A stretch of DNA of 64,000 nucleotides. Source: Blasia pusilla (Eukaryota). The translations under genes and the position numbers were made by a program. Below the pieces are notes generated by a model. It was not told where the DNA came from, ran no database searches, and saw nothing but the letters and a program-made list of their open reading frames with translations. This document shows positions 1,031 through 52,299 of this stretch, piece after piece (within the stretch, counting starts at the first letter, position 1; every line of letters begins with the position of its first letter). The stretch is taken from contig CM114271.1 in NCBI GenBank assembly GCA_050084515.1, positions 3,286,001 through 3,350,000 on the forward strand, in the 5' to 3' direction.

Positions 1031-1876
1031 TGTGACGTCTTTCAGGATAGACCGGTAAGATCTAGTAGAGCGCCTTTGCGAGTAGTGTAGGATAGGCTCA
1101 GAAGGTTGAGGAGGACATGTTGAGGCCGCGGGAAACCTGAGAGAGCAAGTTTCCCCTTCGTTTCGGCTCATTTGGAGCCATATTGAGGAACTTACTATTT
1201 TGGATAATTACCATTTTGAGTATATGGTCACCTTTCTATTTTTGTAAGTCATCCTTGACCTCCTTCATCAGGTCAAGAGTCGAGGAGATGACTTGGGAGC
1301 ATAGATTACCACGGAGAGAACTTGGGAGAGGGAAGGGGTATACCTCAAGGAGAGAGAGCTTGAGAGCTCATTCTCTCTTTGTTGAACCTTTTGGCATGAG
1401 GCAGCGGAGCTATGGTCCTCCTTGCCTTGTGTGTGTAAACCAAGCCTCTCATTAGGAGAGTGGGTTTGGTTTGACATGAGAGCGAGTGCACACCATGGAG
1501 AGGTTGGTGTGAGGTGTTGAGAGAGATTTTACCTTATTTTACAAAGAGGGAATGAGAGGGTGGGAGAGCTTCAATGGAGGAGCACGCTAGTTACTCGTTG
1601 TTGGTGCAAGTTGGGGACCGTGTTCCCTATTCAACAGCTCACGGGAATGCTCACTGGAGCAAACGTTACTTATTTTACTATTTTCCATTGTTGATTTTTT
1701 GTGTGGAAGAGTGGCGCACGGAAGCGTTGCCCAAATTTCCTTAGAGATGAAGTTTAGGGGCAGATTTCCCTTTTAGTGCTCTCGAGAGCACCAAGTAGCT
1801 TGGTTGTTTATGATTTGACAGGTCTTGAGTTTTTTGTGGAAGAAATTAGCGCGGAAACACTGCTGATTTTGTCCTA
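1031..1876 (+). repeat. LTR of the DNMT-gypsy family, left part, interrupted by a CACTA terminus
   Basis: Starts TGTGAC and aligns from its first base with copies at 51669 and 62275. Homology to the 62275 copy stops at 1876 and resumes on the minus strand at 38468. Confidence 0.8.
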
Positions 1877-2111
1877 CACTGGAACAAATCATGGTTTTAA
1901 TAACTTGCTCATATGACTCATTTTAGTCATATATAACCATAAATGACTGGCCATGATTGGTGACTCATGGAGTCACAAAAGCCTAGTCATGTACCATATT
2001 ATGACTAAAGTCATTTAGAGATGACTCATGGAGTCATTCGGTTATATGACTAACACGTCATCAAGCCATTGCACGTGTAAACCCGTAGTCATATAGTATG
2101 ATTGTGTCATG
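1877..2111 (-). mobile_element. CACTA (En/Spm) transposon terminus with subterminal repeats; displaced 3' end of the element at 38469-47910
   Basis: TIR CACTGGAACAAATCATGGTTTT resembles CACTAGAAGAAAATGGTGGTTTT at 38469. Dense ATGACT/AGTCAT motifs at 1913-2110 match those at 38520-38760 and 47390-47910. Confidence 0.8.
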
Positions 2112-3000
2112 GCGTCGTGATGCCTCTGATACTGACGATATTGTCGTCACTCCTATGGGAAATCCCATCGCCCACTCTCTCTTGTCGACCTTGGGCTCCA
2201 CCAACCTCTGAACCTGGTCATCCCAAACCAAGCCAAGACCAGGCTCCTTGTATGCATAGGAAGCGAGAAAACTCACAAACGTGGGAAAGGCTGCCCACGG
2301 CTTGCCTATCCACAATCAGCGGTGGTCAATCATCATGCCTCACTGCTTGTGAGCGACCACCTGGATCCAGAATGGAAGCCACTAACAAATGGGAGGGGCG
2401 CTCCACTCTCGCATACGCCCTCGGTAACATCGCATGGGGCACCAAGTTGGTCCACCATAGACGCGGGCGATGGGCTCTAGAACCTACACTCGCCGCATCC
2501 AAAAACACTACAGGGCCGATCCAAGCACGCACTTGATGAGCACTCATCTCCACCCATAACCTGGAGTCTCCTAAGATTGGCACATTCTCCAGAATGTAGG
2601 CTGGAGAACGAGATAGGTGCTCTTGCAACTCTCGTAAGACCCTCAACATCTCCCAAAACAACCTAGACCGAGTGTCAGCCAACCCGTTGCCTCGTCAAGC
2701 AATCGATTGGCCTTAACATGGCCAACCGGAAATGACCAAATCAATGGTGCCTAACCGGTCTAAGTCCTGCGCCCCTAGCAACGAAATATCCCTTGGTAGG
2801 GAACGCTGGTACCCCTGTACCGCGAATGCAGACAATAAGTCGGGAAAACGTGGGCGTAACTGTGCCACATGTTGTAGTGAGATGCGCCACGAAAAATCAT
2901 CACTCTCCACATACGGGTACTGTTGCACTTGCACTCTTGCCTGCAAAACAACAGCTAATCCGATGCTAATCCCTCCAAAGAGATCTAACACTCAAATACC
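2110..3000 (-). pseudogene. DNMT3-like C5 cytosine DNA methyltransferase domain of the retrotransposon polyprotein (stops plus one frameshift)
   Basis: Motif I GI*VLDLFGGISIG; motif IV DLVISGWPC*GQS; motif VI YILENV; motif VIII FLDAASVGSRAHRPRLWWTNL; motif IX EPKVDKREWAMGFPIGVT. Motif X (LLGQAMDL) lies at 48892 on the minus strand. Covers ORFs 2713-2991, 2326-2682 and 2061-2315. Confidence 0.9.
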
Positions 3001-3168
3001 CTCCTCCGAGATACACCACACAATAGGTGTGGTATCCAAGGGTGTCATCGTAGCACTCCCTGCTACCTCGGGTTCCTCAGACCCGTCACGCTCCGGTGCA
3101 AATGCCTCGCTCGACGCGGTCTGCACGTGCTTATCTGCCAATCGTCGAAGCTCCTCAGTCGAGCCCCA

Positions 3169-3770
3169 CTACGGCACCTCTCCTCCACGGAATGATGCGG
3201 CTACCATAACACTCCTCTCCATGGAAATGTTAGGAACTGGAGTATCCTCTACATGGACATGTCCCTCAATCAAATCACGAGGCCAAGTGATGGCACTTGT
3301 AAATGCTGCTAAGGTCGCCGTCTCTCCTGGCCGTTGCTCAATCACTGCACCTGTGAATCGAACGGGTAACGAGGTAAGGCGCCCATGACCTGAGTGCCAT
3401 CGTGGTCTATAGGACGCAGACTCCTCCCAATTATCCAGGGAAAACCCCATCGGATATAACACTACTCCACCAACCAAGACGTCATAGGACTTTGTATCAG
3501 TCACTATCGTCTTGGCTCGCACCACGGACTCATCTGTTGGATGTTCTGGGTGAATCTTCACCACGACCTCCTATCGGGTGATATACTGTGTGGTACTCGC
3601 TCCACCCAAGGATTTCTGTATCCGGAATGGAAAACGCTCCACATCGGCTCTTGTCAAGCCCAATCCTATAAATGACGCTTTCCCCAACATCAGGGATTGC
3701 GCTCCTGAATCCAACAAGATGCGTTGCGGACTAAAAGGTCTACCTTGAGAACTCACCAATTGGAAGACCG
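3169..3770 (-). pseudogene. Retroviral-type aspartic protease region of copy B
   Basis: RILLDSGAQ active-site motif (ORF 3571-3759) and downstream YDVLVG motif (ORF 3169-3564). Homologous to 29585-29980. Confidence 0.8.
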
Positions 3771-4048
3771 CTCCTCAATTATCCAGCAACACAACACCAG
3801 GAGAATCCATGGCATGCTCTTTCGCGGGTCTAGCGGGCATCTCCGCCATCCTAGCAGCCGCAGCCTACCATGAATCTGACATGGATGTTTTGAGCATCCG
3901 CTCCAAGGGCAAGTCCATCACCTCCTCTGCAATCACTTCTGAACGTGATGCAGGAACTCCGACTCCGCGCTTACATAGTAAAGCGGCCAGCCGAAAAGCC
4001 TCGGCGGGCATACCCCCCAACATCATAACATCGAAAGTAGAAAATAAA

Positions 4049-5053
4049 TGTCGCGCCCCTACTCTCCTTGAACGTCAATCTTTAGTGTTGCGGAAGCGTA
4101 CGTTCAGTAGGTCACGAACTCATCGCCGATCTGCACCCAAACACGCACTCTCGTTAGTCGGGTCTGGGCCAACCAGCGTTCCAACCCACCGAGTCCTCAA
4201 CTCGGCGTCTCATCAAGCTCAACCTTCCTTAGTTCCTAGTTTCCAAAACATGGCAAGTCCTTCAAGACTTGGAACAAACTTCCTGGTTAGTCCAAGGATC
4301 TGAAACGGCACTTGCGCGCCTAGCGATCCCAACTGCTCAACGGTCCTCGGGTGAGTTCCGAAACCAAGACCCAAGTAAGTGAGTCGCGGGGTGGAATCCA
4401 AGAGGGACATCTAAAATCGCCTCAATGGACTTGGTGCAGGTTTTCCAACCCAACCCCCAAACTCGCGTTCCGTTCCATGCCCTTGAGCCGCCCCGCGGCG
4501 CCCAAAGTGGGGTTTGGGTTCCAAGCACTCTCGGAGACCGTCCCCCTTACTAGTACTTCTGGGGTTCTCCAATACCCCCCCCCCCTTTGGAAAAAGAGGG
4601 TCGGGCCCTTCATTGTGGCCCTCAACCCGACTCCACTTACAGTCGTTTTCGGATTGTTTCTCAGCCAGTGCTTATGAATTTGCAGCGATCTTTGGTGCGT
4701 TTGGACCGGATCTCCATAAGCTTTCCAACGCACCCTTATTTGATCCAAACGCGTCTTGGCGCTAAAAGTTATGGCCATAAATACAGTCGGAAACTCTCAA
4801 ACGCTAGTGGCGTTCCAAATCCGGATCTTTCCTTTGGCAACACACTTCCTAGACTCGACTTCTTTCAAGTCTCATTCCGCGTTTGGTCCAGGTTTCTCGG
4901 TCGCGACCATAACATCTGAAACGTGACTCCTCGCTCGCGTCTAGTCTCTTGTCTCCTCTTTAAGACTACTCCAACGCGCAAACCATCTTAGCGTGAGCCC
5001 GCTAATGTTCCGATGTTCCGCTTGGCACTTGTTTGGTCATGAGGGTTGCGACA
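4049..5053 (-). repeat. 3' LTR of the chromovirus element
   Basis: TGTCGCGCCC...GGTTGCGACA. About 8 differences from 10410-11408 spotted by eye. Confidence 0.95.
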
Positions 5054-5068
5054 CTCACCCCTCTTTTA
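5054..5068 (-). promoter_or_regulatory. Polypurine tract
   Basis: Minus-strand TAAAAGAGGGGTGAG directly abutting the 3' LTR. Confidence 0.85.
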
Positions 5069-5720
5069 GAGGGTGATGCCCTCATCAACGCAAACCTTTG
5101 TTATGTCAAGTCTCCTGGGCAGCCTATCCCTTGACATTGAATTGCGTTCTGGTGGCTAACCCCCAATTCCTCTTAGTCTCTAGTTGTCGCTTTGCCCCAC
5201 TTAGAATTATTAGCCTCTCCTCTTTGATAAGCCTGGACTAGTTCCAAGGAACTAACCTATCAAATAAGCTAACTAAGTGTGCAACCTTAGACTCTTCTGA
5301 CTCATTCCTGTAAACATCACACTTGTTTACCTGGTCTACAAATCGCACTACTATTGGGTCGCTCTCGTATTCAACTTAGGCGCGTCACTAAGTTTACTTA
5401 TGTGGCCAAAAGTAAGATCACCCCAAGCCCCAAGACAGACTTCATCTGCCCCGCCGACGCTAGGGCGAGCCCGAGTGTAATCCAACACAAGGTCCTATTC
5501 TAGGTGCTTATCCACATACGAGCTCTCACCTCAAATACTCCTTGTCTGTCCTCTTGTCGTACACCCTAAGCCTATGATGAACGACTCATAGCCATGCACT
5601 ACCACATACAAATTGCAATCAACTTTGGCATCGAATCTCCAAATCCATACACTCCTTTATTGCAACACTAGCATATTCTAGTTACAACGGCCTTCGGCCC
5701 AAGATTCCACTGGTTACAAG

Positions 5721-8700
5721 TCATGTCTCTAGCTTCTCCTCGTAATAACGTATGTGCTTCGCTTGTGTCCGCTTGAAGTCGCGCAACAAGTCTTGCACGT
5801 GTTCCAAATCCGCCTCCGCAATCCAAGTCGCCTCCTTCATATGGTAGCCCTTCCATTTTACCAATTATTCATACTTGTTGGCCCGACGCCTCGAACGTAA
5901 GATGGTCTCCACCTCAAACTCCAGCTCTTCATTTATGATGACCGGGTGCGGTCTCACCACCTGTCTCCGCGCGAAACGTCCATTATCTTGAAGATATTTC
6001 TTCAACAATGACACATGAAAGGTCGGGTGAATCTTGAACTCGTCCGGCAGCCTCAACGTGTACACATCCTCAAACGGGTTTGTCACAATCACATACGGTC
6101 CAGCATACTTGGCAGACAGCTTCGCAGACAGCTCTTTCGGAAGAGTGAGGTTCTTTACACTCAACCACACTTGTTCTCCAACTTGGAATCGTACTTGGCG
6201 CCGACTCTTGTTAGCATGCTTAACGTACCTCATTTGAGCCTTTGCAAGACTTCGCCTCGCGCGCTCTTCTTGTTCTCGCATCTCTACCAATAAACCTTCC
6301 GCCGTCGCTTGTCGTGTTCGTGCCAATGTAGTACCCTTCGAAAGGGCTAGATCAAGAGGCCCTTCTAGCTCTCGTCCATTTGCCATGAGAAACGGAGATT
6401 CTCCAGTCGCAGAATGCTTGGTCGAGTTGTAGAAGTACTCCGCCATGCTCACCCACTTGACCCAATCGCGTTGATCAGCACTGACATAATTCCTTAAGTA
6501 CTGATTCACGATAGATTTTACCTTTTCAATCTGTGGGTGGAAAGCCGTATTGAAACTCAGCTTGGTCTTAAACCTTCTGAACAAGTGCTTCCAGAAAGCA
6601 CTGGTAAACTTTGGATCCTGATCTGAAACAATGCTCCTCGGCAAACCGTGAGCACGCCACCAGCTATTGAGGAACAGTTGCGCCGTCGTATAAGCCGTTG
6701 CGGAACCCACTGTCGGCACAAATCTCGCCAACTTGCTAAACCGATCAACAATCACAAGTATAGCGATGTATCCCTCAGATTCCGGAAGACTCGTGATGAA
6801 ATCCATACTCACACTTTGCAAGGGTCCTTTTGGGATCGGCAAGGGATGCAGCAAGCCCTGCTTCTTATCATAAGAGACTCTATTCGCTTGGCAAGTCACA
6901 TAGGTCTTCACATATTGAGCAACATCCTCTTTCATGTTGGGCCAAAAGAACCGCTTCGACAAAACAGCTAGCGTAGATTTCTCTCCTTTATGTCCTGCCA
7001 AGGGTCCATCGTGACACTCCGCTAACACCTTGGTTCGCATCCTGCCTTGCCCTACATAGATCCTACTCTGTTTGAACCTTAGTAAACCGTGCCTCAAACT
7101 TACGTTGGCCACCTTCTCACCCTGCTTCAACTTCCTCAGGTACTCCCCTGCGTGAGCATCCTTCATATATCCTTCACGAATCCTTCTTTCCAGATCTATT
7201 TCTTTAGGGAACATTGCTCTTAAGACTTGTGTCGTCAATGGCATGTGTTCCTCCTTGCGACTTAACGCAACTGGAATCTCATTATCTTTACATGGCTTGT
7301 GAATCAACTCAACATCCATCAACGCCAAGGTATCATGCCATCGCAGTTGTTTCGGCCTCACTCGATCCTGGGTCTCAAAATACTTGAGTGATATATTATC
7401 AGTGGATACTCGATTCCTGTGGAGCCCTAGATAATGCCGCCACTTCCTCAAGAAATGTACCACCGTGAACAACTCTTTCTCGTGAGTAGGCCATCTCCTT
7501 TCAGTATCGCTAAGCTTCTTGCTCTCGTATGCCACCAGTCTCCCTTCTTGCACCAACATTCCTGCAACCGCGAAATCACTAGCATCAATATGCACTTCGA
7601 ACGGTTTGTCAAACTCCGGCAGCTTCAACACTGGTTCCTGCGATAGAATCTGCTTCACTCGGTTGAATGCCTCATTAACTTCCTGGGTCCAAGTCGTGTT
7701 GGAAAACTTTGCTGTCCAATCCGTGAGAGGTCTCACAATTCCCGAAAAGTTTTTCGCATAAGTACGATAAAACTGCACCGCACCTATGAACCTCCTCATC
7801 CCCTTTACAGTGGATGGGGTTTCCCACTCGAAAATCGCTTTCATCTTCTCCATGTCTGGACTGACGCCATCTGCACTGACCACGTGACCCAAGAATTTGA
7901 TCTTACTCAAACCAAATCCGCTCTTCTCTACATTCGCATACAGCTGATTTACCCTTAGCTTAGACAAGACCGCTCTCACATGTCGAAGGTGCTCCTCTAG
8001 TGACTTCGAGTAGATAAGTATGTCATCAATATAGATGATAACATACTCATCCATTTCCTTGTGAAAAATGGAGTTCATCAATGTGGTGAACGTTGGAGGC
8101 GCGTTACATAGACCGAAAGGCATCACTACAAACTCAAAGGAAATGTATCTCGTCCTACACGCATTCTTCTCCACATCTGCCTCGGCAATCCGAATCTGGT
8201 AATATCCTGACTTCAAGTCAATCCTACTGAAATATCTCGCGCCTGCCAGCCTATCAAAGAGATCATCTATCCTCGAAAGAGGATAATTGTTCCGAACCGT
8301 CACTTTGTTCAGTGCACGGTAATCAAGACACAACCTCATCTTTCCATCCTTCTTCTTTACAAAGAGAATAGGTGCTCCATAAGGTGACTTGCTAGTCCTA
8401 ATGTAACCCTTTTCCAAGAGCTCACTTAACTGCTTTTTCAACTCAAGAAGTTCCTTCTGATTCAACCTATATGGTGCTTTTGAAGGCGGTTGGGAACCGG
8501 GTATGATCTCTATCTTATGATCAACGGCTCTATGCGGCGGCAATTCAGTCGGAAGCTCATTTGTCAAGACATCCTCAAACTCCTTGACCACTTCCTGGAG
8601 TGGTTATGGGATTCCCCTCGAAGCAGTGTCATGATCTCTGCGTATACTGCTTGTAGCCTCCTCCACTTGTCTCATCAAGCAGAGAAATCCATCCTCCAAC

Positions 8701-10193
8701 TGAGTCATGCTCCTCCTTGTGATCGAGTTCACTAACTCCATTTTCGCTGGAAACTCACGGACCAACCGCACCTGTAACCGTTTGCCTTTTAGCAAGACGC
8801 TCAACCTCAAGGGTCTACGTCTTAACTCCACCTCATACGCATCTAGGAATGTATCCCCCAAGACTCCGTCAATGCCATCCATTTCGCACACAGTGAAATT
8901 CTCCTTCAACTCGAATACCCCGCATCCTACTGTCAAACCCAAGACCAAATCAGAAGTCCGATGAGACTTGCCTCCTGCAAATCCTACTCGAATGGGCTCA
9001 TCCACCTTAGAGGTAGACAGCCCCAGTTCCTTCATGATTCTCGGGCTTAGGAAGGAGTGCGAAGCACCTGTATCCACGAGCAACAACACATCGCGATCAG
9101 CAATCTTGGATCTTAGGTACACCAAATTGTGCGTCCTCTTGGTGACTTGAAGGGACGTCTCGAGATCGCCCGCCAACAGATGCTTAGCAGCAAATGCAAT
9201 CATACTCCCATTACTAACCTTCGGTTTCGAACACACTTTTGCCAGGTGCCCAGGTTCGCCACAGTTGTAGCATACGACCTTGCCGTTCCTTGACTTCGAG
9301 TGTTGTCCTCCTCTCGGTTTCGCATGAAGTTCCACTCGTTTTGCTGCCGAGGCAGACGACTCTCCTGGTTCGTGCTGGCCCCCACTCCAGCCTCTTTTGA
9401 ACGCCTCCTTATTTTTCGACTTCTTCGAAAAACCTTTTGGCTCGAAGGGTTTCTGGGTTTGGACCTCATCATCCCCAATCCGCTCCGCTAGCCTCAGAAG
9501 ATCCGCGCAGGTCTCTGGCAACGTCGGCATTCGATAAAGGGCCTTTTCAGCGCTCGGCTTGAGTCCACTAATGAAGATAGCCTTCTTCGCGTGCTCATCC
9601 ATCTTTGGACTAGAAGTCAGTTTAGCACTAAAATCCCTCACATACGCGCTTAAGGAACCACTCTGCCGCATCCGAATGCATTCCACCGTGTCGCGCAACC
9701 CTTGGTACTCCGGAGTGAACCGATCCCCAATCAACTCCTTGAACTCCTCCCAACTCAGAGGTGACTCGCCGCCCGAGATATTCTCTCGTTGAGTCGCCCA
9801 CCATTGTAGAGCATGATCCTTCAGAAAGTAACGGCTACCGTCACCTTGTCCTTTCACCGCCCTCTGCGCCTCGAAGTACAATTCGGTTTCAGAAGGAAAT
9901 CCTTCACTTTCATGAGTGCCCCACTCCGTGAATGGCGTGGGCGAGGTTTGTCTTCAGACCTTTTGCCCCCTTTTCGGGGTTCGAGTGGCCTCTAACTCTG
10001 CAATCCGCTTGCTTTGCTGGGACATCTGCTCCACCAACACCTTCAACAAGTCCAACGTCTGGCTCGACTCCGTCCGTTCCCCTGAGTTTGGGCCCACTGG
10101 CCCCGCGGAAGGATTCGCCTCCGGAACGTCCTCACGACTGGCGTTCAGCTCTTCGGGAGTATCCGTCTCCTCCATAGCTTCACGGTCCGGCAT
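5721..10193 (-). pseudogene. gag-pol polyprotein (Gag, CCHC knuckle, protease, RT, RNase H, integrase, chromodomain), interrupted
   Basis: CYNCGEPGHLAKVC, LLVDTGASH, YIDD, DASD, HHCC/DDE integrase. The chromodomain FEVETIL...KYE*LVKWKGYHMKEATW reads through an in-frame TAA at 5865-5867. Another in-frame TAA lies at 8604-8606, with frameshifts near 9880-9960. Confidence 0.93.
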
Positions 10194-10395
10194 TGGTTCC
10201 TCTCTTGGTTCACGTTGCTTGATTCAGCGCTTCTTGGGTTGTTCTCCCTCGATCGCCATCTCCAAGCCAACTCACTCACATCTCCTCCTCGTTTCTTGCG
10301 TCCCTCCTCGAGCGTCTGAGTCTAGCCGCCACCTTTGAGTTTCCCCAAGCGTCCGGTTGATCCCACGACCCCAAGTTCTCGCTCACCAAGGATTA

Positions 10396-10407
10396 GCTCT
10401 GATACCA
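10396..10407 (-). promoter_or_regulatory. Primer-binding site (tRNA-iMet)
   Basis: TGGTATCAGAGC on the minus strand, 2 nt from the 5' LTR. Confidence 0.95.
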
Positions 10408-10409
10408 CT

Positions 10410-11408
10410 TGTCGCGCCCCTACTCTCCTTGAACGTCAATCTTTAGTGTTGCGGAAGCGTACGTTCAGTAGGTCACGAACTCATCGCCGATCTGCACCCA
10501 AACACGCACTCTCGTTAGTCGGGTCTGGGCCAACCAGCGTTCCAACCCACCGAGTCCTCAACTCGGCGTCTCATCAAGCTCAACCTTCCTTAGTTCCTAG
10601 TTTCCAAAACATGGCAAGTCCTTCAAGACTTGGAACAAACTTCCTGGTTAGTCCAAGGATCTGAAACGGCACTTGCGCGCCTAGCGATCCCAACTGCTCA
10701 ACGGTCCTCGGGTGAGTTCCGAAACCAAGACCCAAGTAAGTGAGTCGCGGGGTGGAATCCAAGAGGGACATCTAAAATCGCCTCAATGGACTTGGTGCAG
10801 GTTTTCCAACCCAACCCCCAAACTCGCGTTCCGTTCCATGCCCTTGAGCCGCCCCACGGCGCCCAAAGTGGGGTTTGGGTTCCAAGCACTCTCGGAGACC
10901 GTCCCCCTTACTAGTACTTCTGGGGTTCTCCAATAACCCCCCTTTGGAAAAAGAGGGTCGGGCCCTTCATTGTGGCCCTCAACCCGACTCCACTTACAGT
11001 CGTTTTCGGATTTTTCTCAGCCAGTGCTTATGAATTTGCAGCGATCTTTGTGCGTTTGGACCGGATCTCCATAAGCTTTCCAACGCACCCTTATTTGATC
11101 CAAACGCGTCTTGGCGCTAAAAGTTATGGCCATAAATACAGTCGGAAACTCTCAAACGCTAGTGGCGTTCCAAATCCGGATCTTTCCTTTGGCAACCCAC
11201 TTCCTAGACTCGACTTCTTTCAAGTCTCATTCCGCGTTTGGTCCAGGTTTCTCGGTCGCGACCATAACATCTGAAACGTGACTCCTCGCTCGCGTCTCGT
11301 CTCTTGTCTCCTCTTTGAGACTACTCCAACGCGCAAACCATCTTAGCGTGAGCCCGCTAATGTTCCGATGTTCCGCTTGGCACTTGTTTGGTCATGAGGG
11401 TCGCGACA
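10410..11408 (-). repeat. 5' LTR of the chromovirus element
   Basis: Direct repeat of 4049-5053, followed by TSD ATAAA. Confidence 0.95.
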
Positions 11409-11413
11409 ATAAA

Positions 11414-12966
11414 GGAGTGCGGTACACAATGGTGGCCGCCCCCAACAACGTGCTCGACACATGCCCCTCCAGAGCATCAACAATAGGAGTCGTCGTACTC
11501 GATTCTCCCATCACCCTCCGTGCCTGCACACCAAAAATATCACCAACTCTCTAGGAACTCTGATCAAGATCCATCGATGGGGTCCTCATTGCATCTGACA
11601 ACGTGAAAGACTGAGGAAGCCTAGTCTGTTTCTTGGCTTCCCCTCGCTATGGATCCAACTCTGCGGCTGCTCCTCGCATCACAAACTGCGCCTTCCTCCA
11701 TCTAGGCAACCCCGCACATCCAACCAGGATCCTCCAGATCTCTGGCTGCTCCATATGATGTCGATGCCATGGATCTGGCATCGGGTAACCTCAATGCCAT
11801 AACGGCAATCTGCTCCTTTAGCTACTATATCTGAGCAGCCTTCCCAGCCTCACGTCCGGCGTCTCCCTCGGTGCGTCTAGGTGGTGGTACTCTACCTCCT
11901 CCACGGGCAGCTCCACTACCGTGTCGGACAACTCCAGCTCCTCGTCCCCCAATGGGACCACCTGGTGCACGATCTCTAGCCCACCCGGACCGGCTACTCG
12001 CTCTGATGCCCTCTCTAGCCCTCGGTCCGGACGTAACTCAGGATGTAAACTGAAAGACGTGGCGCGTGTATGACCATATCTCTAACAATAGTCACACTGA
12101 TAACCTCCTAGTGCAACACCATCTCCTCCTCCATGCTGAGGAACGTGTCCATGACCCTGACGAGTGCAACCGTGCTAATGATGGGCTCCACCACATGACC
12201 AACAAGTAATAGTAGGCGGCTGCTGCTGAGCCGCATATGAAGACGGAGGTCTCTGTAGCAAGGCTCCCTGAGCTCGTGGTGCCACAGTCGACCTATCTTG
12301 GAGTCCATGTTGTTGCACAAGTAGTGTAGGCAATCGTGACTGCTCTCGCCCAGAACCCATGGTGGCTACGCTCTCCTCGGCCATGTTGCGCTCAATGTTC
12401 TCGGAGGTCCTAAAAACACCTCTCAACGTAGGGGAGGTGTTCATAAGAAGCACCCCCTCCCGCACCCATGTCCGCAAGGTCCGGTCTAGCATCGCGTACT
12501 ATGACTGGATAGCCTGAGCCTCTACCACCCCGTGAGTGACATTGATCAACCAGTGCAAGCGAGTGTAAGCCTCACGCAAACTCTCACCTGGGCGCCTGTG
12601 GAAGTCGTGATGCTCCACAACTTCTCCGTTCATATCCCATGGTAGCTCGTTGTCAACTCAACAAAGAACTCAACCACAGGGTTGAACCTAGGACGAACCC
12701 AACTAAACAGTGCAACTGCTCCCATGCCAATAACCCCTCCTAAAACGTCACTAGTGGAAGAGCAAGTAGCCTCTCCTGACTCCTCCTCATCTAGGAACGA
12801 CTCCGTCCATGACACATAATGTGGGTCATAGTAGAGCCTCAATGCCTCAATCTAAGTGTTGGAACATACCGTTCCATGTTGTAAACGGGTTGAACTCTCT
12901 AGAGTTCCTGGCCCACTAGGAATCACACCAACTCCTAAACTCTACTATGAAATCGTGCAACTCAAT
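11414..12966 (-). pseudogene. gag of DNMT-gypsy copy B (5'-truncated)
   Basis: Homologous to the gag regions at 23097-24710 and 31270-32941 (EFRSWCDS, RPRFNPVVEFF, LREAYTRLH). Two degenerate CCHC knuckles (CWSCGGAHH, CDYC*RYGH). Confidence 0.8.
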
Positions 12967-13216
12967 CAAGAGAAGGTGAACAAAAGTTGCCAAGATAGAA
13001 GCGTCAAAAGAGGCCAACCGATGTAAGAACCTTGAATTGGGAGGAAAAGTGCAAAGAAGGTAGGAAGGACATCATATAAAACATTGGGAGAGAATCCCAT
13101 AAGCCACTTGGGGATCCCCTAGACGAGGTAACAAATGAAGCCATTCCACGTCTTTCAAAACTGCCTCATCCAAGAACTTTGAGACATAATCGATGAAGCC
13201 AGTTGGGACCCCGAGA

Positions 13217-22332: not shown

Positions 22333-24710
22333 TCACATGTGAGTTTGGCGTAACAGAGAAGTGAGCGGCAGGTGAGGCGGGTGAATCACGGGTATTCTCG
22401 GCATTTAGAGGCTTTGAGGCAAGAGAGGTATTGAAGGTGCGTGAGAGGCATTGCAGGCGCGAGGAAGCCAACTTGTTGGCGGGCGCGAGGACTTGGAAAG
22501 TTGGTGGTGATCCAGTTTAGCATAACTTCCAAGTCACTCATCCCAGTTCCATTCTTCCAGAGTGTGCTTAACTAGAGAGTAATGTTGCTTGTTGTGTTAC
22601 CAACACATCCACAGGGAAGTGATGACTAGTTGTTGCACACAGGGGAATTTAATCACTTACCTTGATACTTACGGAGATGTTTGAGGGAATTTTTTGGGTG
22701 ACACACATATTTTTAGTACGTTGGTGAGTGTAGGGCATTACCGCGACTATTGTAGAGAACTTGGTGGGATGGATGTATACCACACAAGTCGGGAGTGACT
22801 TAGTGTGCGGGCTATTTGGTGAGTATTGATCTCAAGTGAGATGAGTGGGGGCGTGTCCATAGTTTGGGCATCGTCTAGTGCAGAACTAGTGGCTCAGAGG
22901 TGAGTCATATTAGTTTGCAGGGTTCACCAGGGCGCATCCATAGAGTATTGGGGAGCATGGTAATGGAAGAAGTGGCAGAGGATCTACACGAAGTGGGGCT
23001 AGGTATCAAGGGTTTCCACACGAGGAACCACCTTAGCCGCCGGTTGTAGTTACTCCAAGGGTAACGTCAGCGGATTCTGAGTTACCCGAGAGGCCAATGA
23101 GTGTCGTGAGTGTCGCCACATCGTTGTTGTGGAACATGGATGATCGCGATACCTATGGGTCCACGAGGGGACCCCAACGGTTCTCAAGCATGGTGGGAAC
23201 CATCAAGTTAGATGATTTAATGGAGGGTTTTTGTAGTTGGTGTGATGCACAGAGGATGCGGAACCAACAGAGATTCGACCCCTTCATGGCGTGGAAGGGA
23301 ATTTTTCAGCATATGGAGGGCCCTCCCATTGATAATTACCACCAGTTCTGAATTCTCCATGAGATGCAGATCAAGGCGTGGAGACTATTTTGGTCTCCTA
23401 GATATGTGTCCCTCACAGGGCATGCGATATATGATGCGGCGACTGCAATACCACCCACTAATCGCATGGAGGAAACACTTAGAGGAGTTTTTGACCCGAG
23501 TCTTACGAGTGTGACCATCCGTGTGCCACCTGGGTTCAACCCATTGGTTGAGTTATTCCGAGAGTTGGGGAGGAACTATTAGGGGGTGAGGATCGACAAG
23601 CTGAAGTCGATTAGTTCATGAGTTTCAGCAGAGAGCGAGAGAGAGTCAAGAGGCCTATGCGGTTGATCACAACAACTAAGGGTGTGATGGAAGCACAAGC
23701 GGTTCAGTAATGGTATGCGATGCTAGACCGCGAGTTGCAGAAGAGAGTTCGGGATGAAACTCTTGTACATGTTGGTTCGTCTACTCTCAAGTATGTTTTT
23801 TTTTTTTGGCGGAGCGGATTGAGCAACATACTTGAGGAGAGAGTTTTGACGACATGCGTGTCATCTTCAAGGGAGAGGACATAAATAATGGTGTCTCCAT
23901 CAGTGCCACAACGCACTACTTGAGATACAGTTATGGTACTGGGGGCTACGGGAGGATACCAGGAGCCACGACCACGACCTATTCAACCATACGTTGGGCA
24001 GCAGGGCTCATGTATTTCTTATTGGACGTGTGGAGGATCACATCATTAGCGGGATTATAGATAGTAGAGTGGAGTGTAGGCATCACCATCAATTGTGTAT
24101 GAGGCGGCCCAGGGGAGGCCACCCTGACCTCCGTGTGATCATTGCTAGAAATATGGGCACACACACAAGATATGTTTCGAACTCCATCCCGAGCTACAAC
24201 TAGAGGGAGGTCGAGAACTTGGAGATGGCCGAGGATGAGGTGTATGAGGTCGAGGACGTGGTGGAGGCAGGATCCCACCACCTGCCACAACGAGTGCAGA
24301 ACTTGCATCGGAGGCATCTTTGGCGAGGATTGCTCAGTTGGAGCAATACCTTCAGGCTATGACAACCCAACATACTACTACATCATGTGCAGGGGGCGCG
24401 TCGACTTCCGGATGTGCTCAGGCCCAAGATATAGCGGGAGATCTAGGAGGTATCATATTTTTGTGCAACACCACACAGGTGGATGCATATGAAGTGGTTA
24501 CGAGAGGTGCAGTGAGAGCTTCTGAGCCAGGAGTATCCGATGTGGAGTTGGATCCCTAAAGGGAAGAAGTTGGTAGGTAGGCTAGACTTCTTTCCAATAT
24601 TTTACATTGTCAGAGGCTCTTCGGACCCCATCGATGGTCCCTCTACGACCTTTGAGGAATGTTGTTGTCACAAATGTCGATGCAGTTAGGGGATCAGGTG
24701 AGGCGAGTAC

Positions 24711-29275: not shown

Positions 29276-30409
29276 AGTACGTCTACCGGGCCTATGCAGC
29301 ATTCAACACGGCCTAATATTGATACATTACGAGAGATGGCGATGGTTTTGTCTAGCGTCCCATTATTTACAGCCAGAGATTTTTTGACATGTGGAGATCA
29401 ACCAACTGATGTTTTTCGATTGGCGGCGAGGCTCTGTAAGAGCGATGAGTTTGGTTTTTCTAGTGTTGAGAGTCGCATAGGAGATGTGGTAGAGGTACCA
29501 TTGGAGTAGGTGCTCGGGACGAGGGCCATAAAGAGTTGGCATGCATCAACGGCCAGAGTCGCAGAGTTGCCAACTAAATGAGCCATGGAGCGTGCAACCG
29601 TCTCACTAGGATTTGTCTTGGACAATCGAGATGGATTTTTCCAGTTGGTTGGTCCGTCCGGAGTCGTGTATCGACCGCAGAGAGTGCTACTTGATTTAGG
29701 AGCACAACCCCTTATGTTGGGGAAGGCGATATATGTAGCGATGGGATTGCGGAAGTGTGAGATCATTCCATATCCATTCCAGATTCAGAGTTCATTGGGA
29801 GGCACATCCCCGGCACAGTTCATGAATCGCGATGAGATTGTTGTGAGGATTCGGCCCGATCATCTTACGGATAGTGCGATGATGCGGATGCGAGCGGTTG
29901 TGACACCGATCGAGTCTTGTTATGTTTTGGTAGGGGATATCGTATTGTATCCTCTAGAGTTCACACTTGACTTTTGGTAGGAGACAACCTCCTATGGACC
30001 ACATTGGTAGTCAAACGAGGGACGAGCCAATTCGCTATCCGTGTAGTATGTACGGAGACTTGATGGTTCACTCCGAGGGTTGACCACATCAATTGTTTCT
30101 TATTGTGGCACATTATGTTGGCTTGGAGATTTATTGGAGGGGAACACCGATGTAGAGGATATTCCTATAGAGGATAGTCTAAATGAGTGGCATGCGATGA
30201 CGAGCGTGGCTACATCTGTTGGCGACACTTCTTTAGCTTTGTGGGGGACAAGCATCGAATTGAAGAGGAGAGCAAATGAGCTCGTGAGGTAGGCGTGGAG
30301 CCGAGCCTATGCTCTAGAGCGAGACGGGACTGAGTAACCATGTGCTCTAAGAGTGGAGACGTTGACACCCTTGGACACCACACCGATTATGTGGCGGTAT
30401 CCCGAGGAG

Positions 30410-30883
30410 GGTGTACATATACTATATCTCTTTCGAGGGATTAGTACAGCGATGGTTGCAGTGTTGCAGGTCGGAGTATGAGTACAAAAATACTCGTATG
30501 TTGAGAGAGATGAGACTACACGTAGAGTCTCATTACATCATGTGTCGAGACTAGTCCATCAGTATCCTCGGTTATTGCCAGTGTCTGCAGTCAGGGGATA
30601 TCAACATATATTGCCGATCGACATTTCGTTGTTGGGGGGGCTAGATCTGGATAGGGATTGGTCCGATACACTTGGTGGTGGCACGAAAGCCATGTCAAGG
30701 TCATTCTTTTGCGGGTCTAGGACTTGGTTTGAAGGACTCGAGGTCGGCCATATTGCAAGAGATGTTGCAAGTTCTTCGACACTTGAAGACTACCCAATAA
30801 TGTTCTCCAACCTACATTTTGGAGAACGTCCCATTGTTAGGTTTACACTCAAGCCCAAATGATGGTAAGTGTACATCAGGTGC
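30410..30883 (+). pseudogene. DNMT3-like C5 methyltransferase domain of copy D (motifs I to VI), truncated
   Basis: GVHILYLFRGISTA (I), SYVERD (II), IDISLL (III), IHLVVARKPCQGHSFAG (IV), DSRSAILQE (V), YILENVPLLG (VI). Colinear with 2110-3000. Confidence 0.88.
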
Positions 30884-33247
30884 CGTCGATAGAAGTTCGC
30901 CAATCCCATGAATGCACGAACTTGACTCACATCTGTAGGGCGTGGAATGCGTGAAATAACCTCTACCTTCGTCTGTTGCACACCAAGGCTCCCTGGGTAT
31001 ATCGTATGACCTAGGTACTCAATCTGGTCGTAGAAGAAATTGAACTTGCCTCGATGTAGCTTCAACCTATTTTACTGCAATCGTCAAATACCTCCTCTAG
31101 ATGTCGCTCATGCTCCTCAACCGTGGCGCTAAAGACTACGATGTCATCAATATAACACGTAGCAAAATCCTTGGCGAGATCCTATTCATGAACCTCTGAA
31201 ACTAAGCTAGGCATTTTTTAACCCAAATGGTAAGAACCACCACTGGTACAAGCAATCCTTCCCGTCAACATCACCAACTCTCTGGGAACTCTGATCAAAA
31301 CCCATCAATGGGATCCTCATCGCCTGAGACAGCGTAAAACACTGAGGAAGCCTGGTTTGTTTCTTGGCTTCCCCTCGTTGTGGATCCAACTTGACGGCTG
31401 TTCCACACGTAACAACTATGGCGGCCTCCATCAGGGAACCCCGCATATCCAACTTGGATCCTCCATATCTCTGGCTGCTCCATATGACATCGATGCCATT
31501 GATCCAGCATCAGATAACCTCAGTGTCATGGCGGCTATCTCCTCCTATAGCTGTTGTATCTGAGCAGCCATCCCAGCCCGGCATCTCCCTCGACGGGTCT
31601 AGGTGGCGGAACTCTACCTCCTCCACGGGCAACTCCACCAGCCCCTGGGGCAACTCTAGCTCCTCTTTCCCCAATGGGACCACTTGGTGCACGACCTCTA
31701 GGCCCACCCGAACCAGCTACTCGCTCTAGTGGAGCTTCGCCCCCGGCGCTACAGAAAAGGCTATGAGCCCTCTGTGGCCCTCGGTCCGGACGTAACTCAA
31801 GGTACGTGTAAGCTTAAATATCTTGCGCGTATGTGACTGTATCTCTGACAATAGTCACACTCATAACCTCCTGGTGCAACACCATCTCCTCCTCCATGCT
31901 GAGGCACGCATCCATGACCCTGACAAGTGTAATTGCGGTGGTGATGGGCTCCACTACATGCCCAACAAATAATACATGGCGGTTGCTGCTGCTGGTGTGC
32001 CGCATATAATGGTGCGGATCTCTATGGCATAGGCTCTCCATAACCTCTATGTGCTCATGAAGCCACAGTCCTCTCTCAAAATCCACATCGCTGCAATGGT
32101 GGTGCAGATACTCGTGGCTGCTCTCGCCCAAAACTCATGGTGGTTACGCTCTCCTCCGCATGTTGGGCTTAATGTTCTCGGCGGTCCTAAAAACATCTCT
32201 CAACGTGGATGAGGTGTTCATAAGAAGCATCCCCTCCTCCACCCATGTCCGCAGGGTTTGGTCCAGCATCGCATACCATGAATGGATAGCTTGGGCGTCT
32301 GTCACCCCCTGAGGGACGTTCATCAACCTGTGCAAGCGAGTGTAGGCCTCATGCAAACTCTCACCCGGGTGGCTCTGAAAGTCGTGGATGCTCCGCAACT
32401 TCTTCGTCCGTATCCCCTGGTAGCTCGTCCTCAAATCCGCAAAGAACTTAACCACGGGGTTGAACCTGGGACGGACCAGACTGGATAGTGCAAGTGCTCC
32501 AGTGCAAGTCATCCCTCATAACACATCATTCGCAAAAGAGGAAGTAGCCTCTCCTGACTCCTCCTCCTGATCTGGGAATGACTTTGTCCATGACACATAG
32601 TGTGGGTTATAGTAGAGTCACCATACCTCAATCTCATAGGCATATATGTGGGAGAACTCATGGTAATCATCCATGGGTTCCCCCTCTAGGTGCAAGAATA
32701 TACCATTTCATGCTTTAAACGGGTTGAACTCTCTAGAGTTCCTAGCCTGTTGTGAGTCACACCAGCTCCTAAACTCCGCAATGAAGTCATGTAGCTCTAA
32801 AATGCCTACAACATCCAAAAACCTACGCGGTACTCTACCTCGATTGTCCATCTCGTACTCCCAAGCTGTAGGACCACAAACTGTATGCGGTGATGCACTA
32901 ACACACTCCTCTACACTCTCCCCCTGGTCTGAAGATGACACAGAATGAGGTCGAGGTGGTCCCTCATGTGGAGACCCTCGAAATCGCGTGCCACTCCGCG
33001 TAAAAGCTCTAGAGCTACTCTCGGGTCCACCACCTTGCCTCTCAAAGTCCCAAAAATGATGTCATGATGACCCTCTTGCCCCTTTGACGCGATCACTCTC
33101 AACCTCGCGAGTAATCTCTCAATCACTCAAACTAACATGCGACACTCAATCTACACTCTCTCTCATTGAGAAATGTGTTATGTGTCAACAAGCGGCGTGG
33201 TGCAGCAAATCAACTACTGTCATATCATCTCATGAACAAACACACAA
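30884..33247 (-). mobile_element. DNMT-gypsy family copy E: leader plus gag fused directly to mid-RT (PR-DNMT deleted)
   Basis: gag from 32941 to about 31270 is homologous to copy B. It then reads DVDGKDCLYQWWFLPFGLKNA...CYIDDIVVF...MGLANFYRR, matching RT at 47911-49210. Confidence 0.85.
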
Positions 33248-47910: not shown

Positions 47911-48892
47911 TGAAACTCAGCCGGGCGTTCTTTAACCCAAATGGTAAGAACCGCCACTGGTACAAACAATCCTTCCCGTGAGGATCGATGCCCCAAAATG
48001 TCGTCTTCTGTCTGTCCTCCAATCTGCTAGGCAACTGATGGTATCCGGCTCGCAAATCCAATGAACAAAAGACCTTTGCGTGACCAATCGCATCAAAGAT
48101 CTCTCAAGGGTGGGCATGGCATACCTATCGGACTTTGTCTACCGATTGATAGGTCGGTAATCCCCACACATACGCCTATCCTTCCAATTGCCATGCACAT
48201 CCTTCTTGGCGGGCATGACACTGGCAGATGCACACTCCCCATGCGACATCTCCACTAGTCCTACTCCAACCAAGTCCTGACTCCTACTCTAAATCAAAGC
48301 CCTCTCCATATAATTATTCCTGTAGGAAGATCGGCGTATCACTCGACAACTCAATGTGGATCCCCGGTCCCTGCAGCGTACCCAAATCCTCCATGCTAAA
48401 TGCAAAGCAACTCCTAAAGCTCGTGAGGAATTGATGTATTTGGCGCCGCTCTCCTCCTGTCAACTTAGGGCCCGTATCTGACTCCCAAGTCTCCATCGTG
48501 ACTACAGTAGGACTCTTCGGCATGGATATCAGTGGTTGCTATGGTGCAACCCCATCTCGAACAACGACACTCGACCGCTCTCCTGCAACCAAGTGCAAAC
48601 TCTGATCTCCTCCACATGCAGGGCCCGGAACCACGCTCGATGTTGTGGCTATCATCTCTTGGCGTACCTGCAAAACATCCCTAGAAGTCCAAGGGTGTCT
48701 CTCCTGATCTCCCCAAGTGTGTTGATCTCCTCGGGTCTCGCCCCCAGCCACTGCCTCCACCATCTCGATAGGGGATTGGGGCTCACCAATGCAACCGCTA
48801 TGATCTGTTGCGATCTCATCTGACGCTGCTCAGCCACTCCTAAGCTGAAGATCCATGTCAAGCAGTTGAGGTCCATCGCTTGACCCAAGAGG
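47911..48892 (-). pseudogene. Fragment F of the DNMT-gypsy pol: DNMT motif X, linker and N-terminal half of RT (inverted)
   Basis: LLGQAMDLNCLTWI, then CFAFSMEDLG, RRMCGDYRPIN, SLDLRAGYHQL, LYQWRFLPFGLKNA, AEFQ. Confidence 0.88.
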
Positions 48893-51352
48893 GTCATGGA
48901 TAGGATCTTGGATGGTTTGGATTTTGCTAGGTGTTATATTGATGACATCGTAGTCTTTAGCACCACGATTGAGGAGCATGAGCGACATCTAGAGGAGGTG
49001 TTTCGACGATTGCAATTATATGGGCTGAAGCTTCATCCAGGCAAGTGCAAGTTCTTCTACGACCAGATTGAGTACTAAGGTCATACGATATACCCAAGGG
49101 GCCTTGGTGTTCAGTAGATGAAGGTAGATGCTATCTCACGCATTCCACGCTCTACAGATGTGAGCCGTGTTCACGTATTCATGGGATTGGCAAACTTCTA
49201 TCGACGGTACGTCAAAGGATTCAGTTTGATTACAAAGCGGCTGACCTTGTTGACCAAGGTGGATCACGAGTGGCACTAGGGGGATGAGCAGGAGCGAGCA
49301 TTTCAATTGCTCAAGGATAAGTTGTTGTCTGCGCCCATCTTGAGGAGACCGATCAGGGGGCGTCCTTTCTAGTTGCACACAGATTGGAGCATGTTGGGGC
49401 TTGGAGCGGTGCTCACGCAGTATGATGATGAGGGTGGAGAGTTCATGGTGGCTTACGCTAGCCGCTTGAACAAAGCTGCAGAGGCTTGTTGACCAAAGGT
49501 GGATCACGAGTGGCTAGGGGATAAGCGAGCATTTATGAAGATGAGTGCCAGCTACGGTGTGGAGCAGGGTCGTGCGATTCGGTGTTACTTATTCGGAAAC
49601 CCCTTTACCATCATCACTGAAGCTTGGGAGATGGGCTCTGTTGTTGCAGGAGTATGATTTTCAGGTGGTACATAGACCTGGGACGCTCAACCAAGATGCG
49701 GATGGGTCGAGTCGTAACCCATGCCCGAGTCAGCGAGATGCGACTGGAGCTCGATGGCATGGAGAGAGTGATGAGGAGTTGGTGCCAGGATGGCACGCGT
49801 CAGCTTATTTAGGCATGTTGGCTATGGAGAACCACAATGTGGAGACTTTGATGGTGAGGTCTAGTGGAGAGTCCTTGGATCCCGAGGCCAGTGAGGATAC
49901 GACAAGTGGCGAGATATTCATGATGATGGAGTAGTCATGGAGTACCTTCGTACTGGCAGCGTTGCGAGCATCGTGGATGCTAGAGAGCGGGATCGGATCC
50001 TACACCGGGCCAGACGGTTCCGTTGGGAGGGGACATATGTTTCGAGGGTTCGGGAGGATGGCAGAGTACGCGTAGTGCCGCATCCTTCGCAGAGAGCACA
50101 ACTAGTGCAGCATGCCCACGAGGAGTGGGTCACTTTGGGGTGAAGCGGACATACAACTTGCTCCAGATTCAGTATTGGTGGCGAGGCATGCAGACTAACG
50201 TTCAACAGTTTGTTGCCAAGTGCATGGTGTGTGATCGAGTCCGAGCATCGTTCAATGCTCCGACTCCACAATTGCATCCACTACCAATCATGGGCTTAGG
50301 GTATAGATGGAGTTTTGATTTTTCAGGACCTTTTCCTTTGACGGAGCGTCACACTCGTTATGTGTTGATGGTGGTCGAGCTCTTCTCGAAGTGGATCGAG
50401 TTGGTTGCATTGCCTGATAAAGCGAGTGAGGGAGTAGCTTATGCCTTCCTTGACAGAGTGTTGAGTCATTATCGCGCACCGGCTGATGTGTTGACAAACT
50501 AGGGTACCGAGTTTTGCGGTGAGTTCGAGGCCTTGTGTGATCAGGCGCTCATCAACCATCGTACGACTTCGCGAGATCATCTCGAGGCAGATGGATTAGC
50601 GGAGAGAGTTGTGCACGGTGAAGAGGGGTTTACGCAAGTATGGCTTGCAAAGAGGTCACCTAGGAGATTGGGACCTCCAGTTGCCATGGTTGGCGATGGG
50701 ATACACTTTCAGCAAGCAAGCATCCTTAACGTCTTTTTCACCATACTTGCTACTTTATGGTCGAGAGCCAAATTTACGTGCGGCCATTCGTCAAGATGCT
50801 GGTGAGGTGCTGGACCTTGATGACCCAAATGTATGGATTCGAGCATGTTCTTAGAGGGCTGAGTTGTTTCGGAGAGTGATGCCCATGGCATTCGAGAACT
50901 TGGCGATTGCGCAACATCGGGATACGTTGAGGTATGCGACTATTCGGGGTGGTGATTATCGACCAACTATCCGGAGGTTTCATGAAGGAGATTATGTCTA
51001 CTTGCAGCAAACGGCACCAACGACGTTGGATGTGATTGTAGGGTGCACTATCCTGAGAATGCGTGACGTTTTGCTATCTGGTGTTCTCTTGTTGGAGGGA
51101 CGCGATGGTATGGTATGGAAGGACCATGTGCGTAATTGTGCGCCATATCACCTTTCTTACATTGATGGTAGAGTAGATCCGAGCTTAGTAGTAGTTCCTG
51201 CAGGCTTGCGTTGTATGTTGTGTGGTTCTGCTTGTGGTGCGGCCACGATGCTAGTTTGTGATGGATGTTCGAGAGGTTGGCATATGGCATGTCTGATGCC
51301 ACCTCTCACTAAGGTTCCTCGGGGATGATGGATGTGTCCCAGATGTACATAG
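48889..51352 (+). pseudogene. Fragment G of the DNMT-gypsy pol: RT C-terminal half, RNase H, integrase, PHD finger
   Basis: RVMDRIL...CYIDDIVVF, LHTDWSMLGLGAVL, HAHE..GHFG..CMVC, RWSFDFSGPF, DGLAER, C-terminal C4HC3. Confidence 0.92.
51212..51349 (+). other. PHD finger at the integrase C-terminus
   Basis: CMLC-x11[29 protein letters not shown] gives the C4HC3 pattern, with one internal TGA. Confidence 0.9.
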
Positions 51353-52189: not shown

Positions 52190-52299
52190 ATTGGAGATAT
52201 TTGGGTATTTCTCGCCTCTATGTTTGGATGCCATGAGTTAGCATGGGATCGTGCGTGTTTGTGTGTGTGTTTGGTGATAGCGATGTGTATGCGTACGAA

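Follow-up and report, generated by a model that had tools for sequence, protein, structure and literature searches.

Why a transposon should encode a cytosine methyltransferase is an open question, for which self-silencing, camouflage and targeting are candidate answers, and the only streptophyte example studied so far is algal and showed no activity in the sole assay tried. The question is raised by a stretch of 64,000 nucleotides from the liverwort Blasia pusilla (assembly GCA_050084515.1, contig CM114271.1, positions 3,286,001 to 3,350,000; hereafter the window), where an earlier note, made from the sequence alone, had described a Ty3/gypsy retrotransposon encoding a DNMT3-like cytosine methyltransferase between its protease and its reverse transcriptase (RT). 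Is this domain a piece of host gene caught once beside a retrotransposon, or does it mark a family that carries its own methyltransferase? Our analyses indicate that it is very probably the DNMT domain of a dead, nested and rearranged Ty3/gypsy-type copy (copy 1), which belongs to a bryophyte branch of the Gypsy-DNMT3 elements.

A methyltransferase domain inside a degenerate Pol

Six-frame translation and motif location placed C5-methyltransferase motifs I, IV, VI, VIII and IX in order downstream of the protease and on the same strand, as the earlier note had claimed, and together with motif X they follow in copy 1 the canonical order found in homologues (Table 1). The domain begins ~235 residues downstream of a retropepsin-like protease, whose LLDSGAQ signature lies in the same reading frame as motif I. 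The Pfam check proposed in that note was positive: PF00145 (DNA_methylase) matched the read-through translation of 2326-3168, with stops written as X, at 38.3 bits (E 1.4e-9; gathering cut-off 22). When single stop-free pieces were searched, three of the four first pieces had no Pfam match and one reached 16.5 bits, below the cut-off.

The likeness to DNMT3 that the note had seen in these motifs is borne out by comparison with solved structures. The single sequence of copy 1 matched DNMT3A best (E 2.4e-9) and also DNMT3C and DNMT3B, with M.HhaI at E 0.006 and DRM2 at E 0.04. A profile of 26 DNMT domains from the family matched DNMT3A (E 3.6e-26), DNMT3B (E 2.5e-23) and DNMT3C (E 1.6e-22), then tobacco DRM (E 2.8e-14), DRM2 (E 1.3e-10), M.HhaI (E 6e-9) and DNMT2 (E 2e-6), and no DNMT1 was found among the solved structures at E ≤ 0.01. 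Judged by these E-values, the domain has its closest counterparts in DNMT3, ahead of DRM, DNMT1, DNMT2 and bacterial enzymes. Animal DNMT3 proteins carry N-terminal PWWP and/or ADD reader domains; Pfam found neither in the window pieces or in eight relatives, which have gag and protease upstream instead.

The surroundings of the domain are those of a Ty3/gypsy-type element. With Marchantia and Sphagnum proteins as queries, tblastn mapped gag, protease-DNMT, RT, RNase H and integrase pieces in order; for example, residues 21-488 of the Marchantia protein P0007 fell on the gag region of copy 1 (12966 to 11572) and its residues 529-1113 on the protease-DNMT region (4047 to 2278), the latter with 50% identity (E 2.9e-151). 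On the fragment that carries the C-terminal half of RT (fragment G), Pfam recognized RVT_1 (53.3 bits), RT_RNaseH_2 (72.4), Integrase_H2C2 (49.8) and PHD (31.2), with rve at 24.6 bits, under its cut-off of 32.6. The tblastn order and these matches give the Pol order protease, RT, RNase H and integrase, and place the methyltransferase between protease and RT, where the note had put it. Pfam gave no match for the gag and protease pieces of any of the three window copies; the knuckle-like strings CWSCGGAHH and CDYC.RYGH and the LLDSGAQ signature are visible in the window pieces. Among the relatives, zf-CCHC and Asp_protease_2 are matched by the alga Klebsormidium nitens and others, and Klebsormidium relatives match Asp_protease_2 and gag-asp_proteas at the position corresponding to the window protease. 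The predicted order of the whole element is gag with zinc knuckles, aspartic protease, DNMT3-like methyltransferase, RT, RNase H, integrase and PHD finger.

Copy 1 does not possess an intact open frame with the motif IV Pro-Cys-Gln. One of its four in-frame stops comes immediately after Pro-Cys, at a residue that is Gln in 18 of 22 relatives, and a frameshift lies near 2300-2320. Because of these stops and the frameshift, copy 1 cannot yield an enzyme: its DNMT domain is a pseudogene, and the window copy is a dead relic with no functional consequence. Thus, the claim of an element encoding a methyltransferase stands for the domain but not for an enzyme made from this copy. Over 1500-4100, copy 1 has A/T where the majority of family reads has G/C at 146 places, with the reverse at 103; decay of methylated cytosines would give an A/T excess of this kind.

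Relatives, copy number and transcription

A word-indexed search among longer proteins returned 21 matches (13 from Marchantia polymorpha, two from Calypogeia fissa, two from Sphagnum and four others) with 40-61% identity and a best E of 1.8e-95, and the DNMT region was included in all 21. The annotated proteins of M. polymorpha, Calypogeia fissa and Sphagnum that have the same domain order are 47-61% identical, and the relatives' sequences read gag with two knuckles, LLDSGAQ, motifs I, IV (GWPCQ), VI, VIII, IX and X, and then RT. An exhaustive search of representative proteins gave 2245 matches at E ≤ 1e-3, 418 at ≤ 1e-10 and 30 at ≤ 1e-30. From a protein atlas queried with the Marchantia domain, the matches were limited to generic DNA_methylase clusters. 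One protein, P0050 (2188 residues), holds CCHC, protease, DNMT, RT, RNase H and integrase in a single frame. In K. nitens, KFL_013780020 has CCHC at 297, protease at 598-691 and DNMT from 833, and KFL_014710010 has protease at 601-699 and DNMT from 843. The catalytic motifs are well kept in the 22 proteins of the bryophyte clade (GWPCQ in 18, LENV in all 22 and motif I in 17). On the strength of these matches a land-plant family of protease-DNMT elements exists, with members in M. polymorpha, Calypogeia fissa and Sphagnum, where the earlier note had known of no characterized one.

Local domain ordering separates the relatives of at least 700 residues into two architectures, and Pfam on 13 of them agrees. 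Type A has gag, protease and DNMT followed by RT, RNase H and integrase, whereas type B reads RT, RNase H, DNMT, integrase and PHD; among the members named by a profile search, both K. nitens proteins are type A, having CCHC and/or protease followed by DNMT, and QJQ45_005506 of the green alga Haematococcus lacustris is type B. The type-B group is large (P0029, P0036, P0037, P0043, P0060, P0062, P0174 and others, including H. lacustris). In a FastTree phylogeny of 154 DNMT domains (SH-like supports; unrooted, with no outgroup), a 71-row clade (support 96) holds all 36 type-A rows, both K. nitens rows among them, and no type-B row, and an 83-row clade (support 96) holds all 54 type-B rows together with Haematococcus. 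The window DNMT groups with 11 Marchantia rows, Calypogeia, Sphagnum and five others in a clade of 19 rows (support 99), and the K. nitens rows lie in a separate 13-row clade (support 100) within the 71-row clade. A small tree of RT-RNase H, with three type-A and 32 type-B rows and the chromovirus of the window as outgroup, also separates the two types (supports 92 and 88).

The genome of B. pusilla itself was surveyed with a whole-genome run (X18) sampled at ~1 in 100, reads being mapped at ≥85% likeness. Summed DNA depth was 943-2390 in 23 bins over 2109-4100 compared with 13-60 in four flank bins over 1761-2108, so that genomic depth on the protease-methyltransferase stretch is ~40-100 times that of the flank. 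Of 29138 mapped genomic reads, 497 were at least 99% alike to the window copy. These values point to tens of related copies that carry both protease and DNMT, the number being rough. They also bear on the idea that a host DNMT3 fragment lay beside, or was transduced by, a single retrotransposon copy. Such a one-off capture is favored by the state of copy 1, which is degenerate and lies in a heavily nested, rearranged region. On the other hand, a diverged second copy in the window (copy 2) has the same protease-DNMT order, the DNMT part (943-1660) and the protease part (1650-2390) have depths of similar magnitude, far above that of the flank, and the protease-DNMT order recurs in M. polymorpha, Calypogeia, Sphagnum and K. 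nitens proteins. Contradicted by copy 2, by the read depth and by the relatives elsewhere, one-off capture was rejected, and we regard its probability as practically negligible; the check for it that the earlier note had set out thus comes down on the side of a family whose other copies carry the domain.

The family is also transcribed. RNA runs X19, X20 and X21 gave 945, 843 and 1087 mapped reads, respectively, with a depth of 20-95 for one mate orientation compared with 0-12 for the opposite one. Because only 4, 4 and 5 of these reads are at least 99% alike to the window copy, the transcribed copies must be others. RNA over a neighboring repeat (1500-1760) runs opposite to the direction of the DNMT element, which indicates that the libraries are stranded; if they are of the usual type, transcription runs in the sense direction of the DNMT element.

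The annotated bryophyte relatives might be domesticated host genes, and the window copies their pseudogenized paralogues. Gene models do exist in M. polymorpha, where one cluster represents 18 member sequences, and one protein is named DNA (cytosine-5-)-methyltransferase in UniRef. However, the models also cover gag, protease, RT, RNase H and integrase, at least 13 of them lie on different scaffolds of M. polymorpha, the genome of B. pusilla holds tens of copies with three fragments within 64 kb, and insertion into and by other transposons is the behavior of a transposon. The Pol domains in the models, the multi-copy state and the nested insertions led us to reject domesticated host genes as an explanation, and we consider it very improbable. 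It also follows that some bryophyte "DNMT" gene models are transposon Pol fragments, which calls for caution in annotation.

A multi-copy, transcribed transposon family carrying a DNMT3-like domain is therefore the reading that we prefer, and several points weigh against it or against parts of it. The DNMT3 label depends on E-values from profile searches and on the position within DNMT3 that has been published for the K. nitens relatives (de Mendoza et al. 2018, PMC5890265; this paper and the two further sources named below are cited from parts of their texts), our own tree having been built without host DNMT3, DRM or DNMT1 outgroups. For the DNMT element itself no long terminal repeats (LTRs), target duplication or primer-binding site came to light in the window, and self-BLAST at word sizes 11 and 7 found no repeat shared between the sequences preceding the three gag copies and the sequence past the PHD finger. 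The status of LTR retrotransposon thus rests on protein domains; because all window copies are truncated or rearranged, the missing LTRs do not exclude LTRs in intact copies. The flank that serves as depth baseline may not be single-copy. The sense call assumes that the first mate is antisense to the RNA, and under the opposite library type the transcripts would be antisense. Finally, RNA reads at 85-95% likeness mean that family members are transcribed, which is not proof of open frames.

Probable rearrangement of copy 1 and other features of the window

Copy 1 is complete in content and split into three pieces, B and F on the minus strand and G on the plus strand. Piece B runs through gag (12966 to 11572) and then through protease and DNMT (4047 to 2109). 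The homologues read SRRQVLGQAMDL at the B-F join, the region of the join in the homologue sequences being SRRQVLGQAMDLNC, and 715 genomic and 24 RNA reads of other copies leave the window at 2108/2109, past which their consensus equals window positions 48861-48890 in 28 of 30 letters (matched by eye). Joined in this way, B and F read in frame as SRRHVLGQAMDLNC. The earlier note was right that a break exists and that motif X lies on fragment F; the break, which it had put at 2110, lies at 2108/2109, and motif X starts at 48891 rather than at 48892, so that its join of 2110 to 48892 was correct within 1-2 bases. Its second join, of F to G between 47911 and 48889, is supported by copy 3, which is contiguous across the break and by pairwise alignment places it at 47911 and 48888. 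F and G stand head to head with a 3-bp overlap (AGA). No element sequence was lost at the breaks (2108/2109, 47911 and 48888-48890), and B and F are now 46 kb apart. This layout would fit two adjacent inversions or one three-break event; the AT-rich flanks of the breaks (1700-2130 and 47300-47930) have in common only 8-15-bp words rich in ATGACT.

The split might also be an assembly error rather than a real rearrangement, since B, F and G fit together with nothing missing, an outcome that wrongly joined repeats could give. The DNA depth of the flank bin 2022-2108 is steady at ~23, like that of its neighbors, and the 3-bp overlap of F and G is typical of end joining; neither is decisive, and we consider an assembly error unlikely and a real rearrangement the better explanation.

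Three members of the family were resolved in the window with Marchantia and Sphagnum homologues in tblastn and with self-BLAST, and stops and frame changes occur in all of their pieces. Copy 2 is 69% identical in nucleotides to copy 1 over 2866-3138, and its protease-DNMT piece was matched by residues 502-1023 of P0007 (E 1.7e-111). In copy 3, 30880-31197 resembles the reverse complement of 48888-49210 at 86% and 31267-32634 resembles 11536-12853 at 78%. The PHD finger of copy 1 (51257-51346, plus strand) has an in-frame stop ahead of its last Cys pair; the finger is intact in the type-B proteins P0029 and P0060.

The gag and protease regions of copy 1 are separated by a chromovirus-type element that is distinct from the DNMT element. 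Its two LTRs (4049-5053 and 10410-11408), bounded by TG..CA, share 98.8% identity and are accompanied by a 5-bp target duplication (ATAAA), and its open frames of 449 and 912 residues include Retrotrans_gag, Asp_protease, RVT_1, RNase H, rve and an SH3-like domain; it looks young and is possibly intact. At position 4048, 677 genomic reads from other copies of the DNMT family cross the insertion site uninterrupted. A solo LTR related to this chromovirus, 74% identical, lies at 13216-14223.

Table 1. Pieces, motifs and neighboring elements of the DNMT-element copies in the window
Feature	Position	Strand	Basis or state
Copy 1 DNMT3-like C5-methyltransferase domain, motifs I-IX	2109..2991	minus	four in-frame stops and one frameshift
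Motif I, VLDLFGGI	2991-2968	minus	six-frame translation and motif location
Motif IV, GWPC	2727-2716	minus	six-frame translation and motif location
Motif VI, ENV	2589-2581	minus	six-frame translation and motif location
Motif VIII, AHRPRLWWTNL	2475-2443	minus	six-frame translation and motif location
Motif IX, REWAMGFP	2180-2157	minus	reading frame shifted one base
SRRH, end of piece B	2120-2109	minus	motif location
Motif X, LLGQAMDL	48891-48868	minus	on fragment F
Copy 1 gag region	11409..12966	minus	degenerate: stops, two frame changes; two CX2CX4H zinc-knuckle-like strings
Copy 1 linker and retropepsin-like protease	3169..4047	minus	LLDSGAQ at 3717-3697
Copy 1 fragment F: DNMT motif X, linker, N-terminal RT half to FLPFGLKNA (47950-47924)	47911..48890	minus	tblastn with P0010, P0022
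Copy 1 fragment G: C-terminal RT half (YIDD 48935-48946), RNase H, integrase zinc finger and core, PHD finger	48888..51346	plus	Pfam; tblastn with P0029 residues 226-1534
Copy 2 gag region	23154..24604	plus	degenerate; tblastn with P0007 residues 5-478, E 2.9e-74
Copy 2 protease (LLDLGAQ 29687-29707) and DNMT motifs I-VI (ILYLFRGIS 30419-30445, ENVPLLG 30822-30842)	29279..30842	plus	degenerate; ends after motif VI
Copy 3: gag (32830 to 31324) fused via internal deletion to RT piece (31257 to 30877)	30877..32830	minus	tblastn
Nested chromovirus-type Ty3/gypsy element, between gag and protease of copy 1	4049..11408	minus	separate from the DNMT element

The remainder of the window holds further transposons and one long host-like frame. 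An LTR pair (24713-25022 and 28965-29275, 87% identical) lies between gag and protease of copy 2, a Copia-type element occupies 33250-38016 on the plus strand (LTRs 33250-33472 and 37794-38016, 94.6% identical), and within 39000-42800 frames at 39.6-41.6 kb resemble, as judged by eye, a putative CACTA-type transposase. A repeat of ~0.5-0.85 kb occurs three times in the same orientation (plus strand; 1012-1856, 51669-52190 and 62261-63107) with 79-91% identity, and its copy at 51669-52190 is bordered by a 98-bp direct repeat (51538-51635 and 52190-52286; 92%). Among these transposons lies an uninterrupted frame of 952 residues (56708-59566, plus strand) for the histone chaperone HIRA, which represents a host gene free of introns or else a retrocopy that has stayed intact. 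Marchantia paleacea HIRA matches it with 80% identity across 97% of its length, followed by Riccia sorocarpa (76%) and Calypogeia fissa (71%), whereas lycophytes and mosses drop to ~53%. These values place the host among the liverworts, nearest to the complex thalloid group.

Proposed function and comparison with known systems

Whether intact members of the family still make an enzyme bears directly on any function. The family might be real and its methyltransferase no longer an enzyme, having become a structural or DNA-binding module of Pol or undergoing neutral decay, with no self-methylation. This is consistent with the broken state of all window copies and with the residue before the catalytic Cys, which is other than Pro (xCQ in place of PCQ) in 66 of 154 family domains, 13 more matching neither form. 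The replacements include Glu, Leu and others (e.g. GWECQ), and the bryophyte clade keeps Pro-Cys-Gln. The K. nitens element KnitGypsy-Dnmt3 also gave no detectable methylation when its domain was assayed in yeast; its authors, however, called the result inconclusive because human DNMT3B likewise failed in that assay, and they reported Ka/Ks below 0.2 for the K. nitens copies (PMC5890265). Further, motifs I, IV, VI, VIII, IX and X are kept in relatives only 30-35% identical, with the motif IV Cys-Gln in 141 of the 154 domains and an ENV-like motif VI in 135. Although it deserves serious weight, we find loss of enzymatic function rather unlikely as an account of the family.

If intact copies do encode an enzyme, self-methylation of the element is a plausible mechanism, which we put forward tentatively and as something short of probable. 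The methyltransferase would be made within Gag-Pol and either released by the element's protease or kept tethered, and its activity would be de novo cytosine methylation of DNA, with the element's own reverse-transcribed DNA or the new insertion site as the likeliest substrate. The earlier note had proposed processing from Pol, packaging in the particle and possible methylation of the cDNA or insertion site. The PHD finger linked to the integrase may read a histone mark and thereby choose or hold a chromatin context. The chromodomains of chromoviruses offer an analogy for such chromatin reading by a finger at the integrase C terminus.

A broader and more doubtful possibility is that an ancient PHD-bearing Ty3/gypsy lineage with its own DNMT3-type writer predates the split of land plants and Klebsormidium, is still transcribed and possibly mobile in liverworts, and uses methyltransferase and PHD finger as a reader-writer pair that sets the methylation of new insertions, with a sister lineage bearing the module at the RNase H-integrase junction. 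If so, this ancient lineage would include relatives in the tractable M. polymorpha, and the placement of the domain in type B would imply its relocation within Pol or a second capture. Close relatives are annotated in M. polymorpha, where good genetics and methylome data make the role of such methyltransferases approachable.

Among known systems, KnitGypsy-Dnmt3 (PMC5890265) is the nearest, sharing with the window element an unpermuted DNMT3-like domain inside a Gypsy-type Pol. The K. nitens proteins have the same order of zinc knuckle, protease and DNMT and fall in the same 71-row DNMT clade, whereas their DNMT identity to the window domain is only 30-32% and they occupy a separate subclade. 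The host of the window element is a land plant, that of KnitGypsy-Dnmt3 an alga, a possible further difference being the C-terminal PHD finger of the window element. The legend of Fig. 4c in PMC5890265 gives KnitGypsy-Dnmt3 a repeat structure like that of a DIRS retrotransposon; in the window, which holds no intact copy, no such terminal repeats were found. The type-B elements, on the other hand, share with the window element a related DNMT (32-42% identity), RT, integrase and the C-terminal PHD finger, and differ in carrying the methyltransferase between RNase H and integrase instead of between protease and RT. Over RT, integrase and PHD the type-B protein P0029 is 36-44% identical to the window element, compared with 25-28% to the nested chromovirus.

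Cytosine methyltransferases are also borne by other retrotransposons. SymbioDIRS-Dnmt3 and SymbioLINE-Dnmt of Symbiodinium belong to the tyrosine-recombinase DIRS and long interspersed nuclear element (LINE) classes in another host kingdom; the SymbioDIRS domains gave de novo CG methylation in yeast, and independent acquisition of the methyltransferases was inferred by the authors for these elements (PMC5890265). EpiLTRs of Cymbomonas and Euglena (bioRxiv 10.64898/2026.05.21.726589) are LTR elements in which, as in the window element, a chromatin-reader domain accompanies the cytosine methyltransferase. Their DNMT is sister to DNMT4 and lies at the 3' end of pol or is combined with an adenine methyltransferase, and their reader is a chromodomain, whereas the window element has a DNMT3-like domain between protease and RT and a PHD finger as its predicted reader. 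Host DNMT3 and DRM share the catalytic domain family with the window element, whose motif order is that of DNMT3, unpermuted unlike DRM; in contrast to these host enzymes, the window DNMT has no PWWP or ADD, is embedded in Gag-Pol, and is multi-copy and intronless.

"Streptophytes (Gypsy-DNMT3)" are mentioned in general terms in PMC12344493 and in bioRxiv 10.64898/2026.05.21.726589, and we found no description of such elements in bryophytes in the main texts that formed the scope of our literature search, supplements and subscription-only journals lying outside it. Together, these comparisons suggest that the window element in all likelihood belongs to a land-plant branch of the published streptophyte Gypsy-DNMT3 lineage, its architecture being already known from K. 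nitens, and what this analysis adds is the same architecture in land plants, in tens of copies and transcribed in a liverwort.

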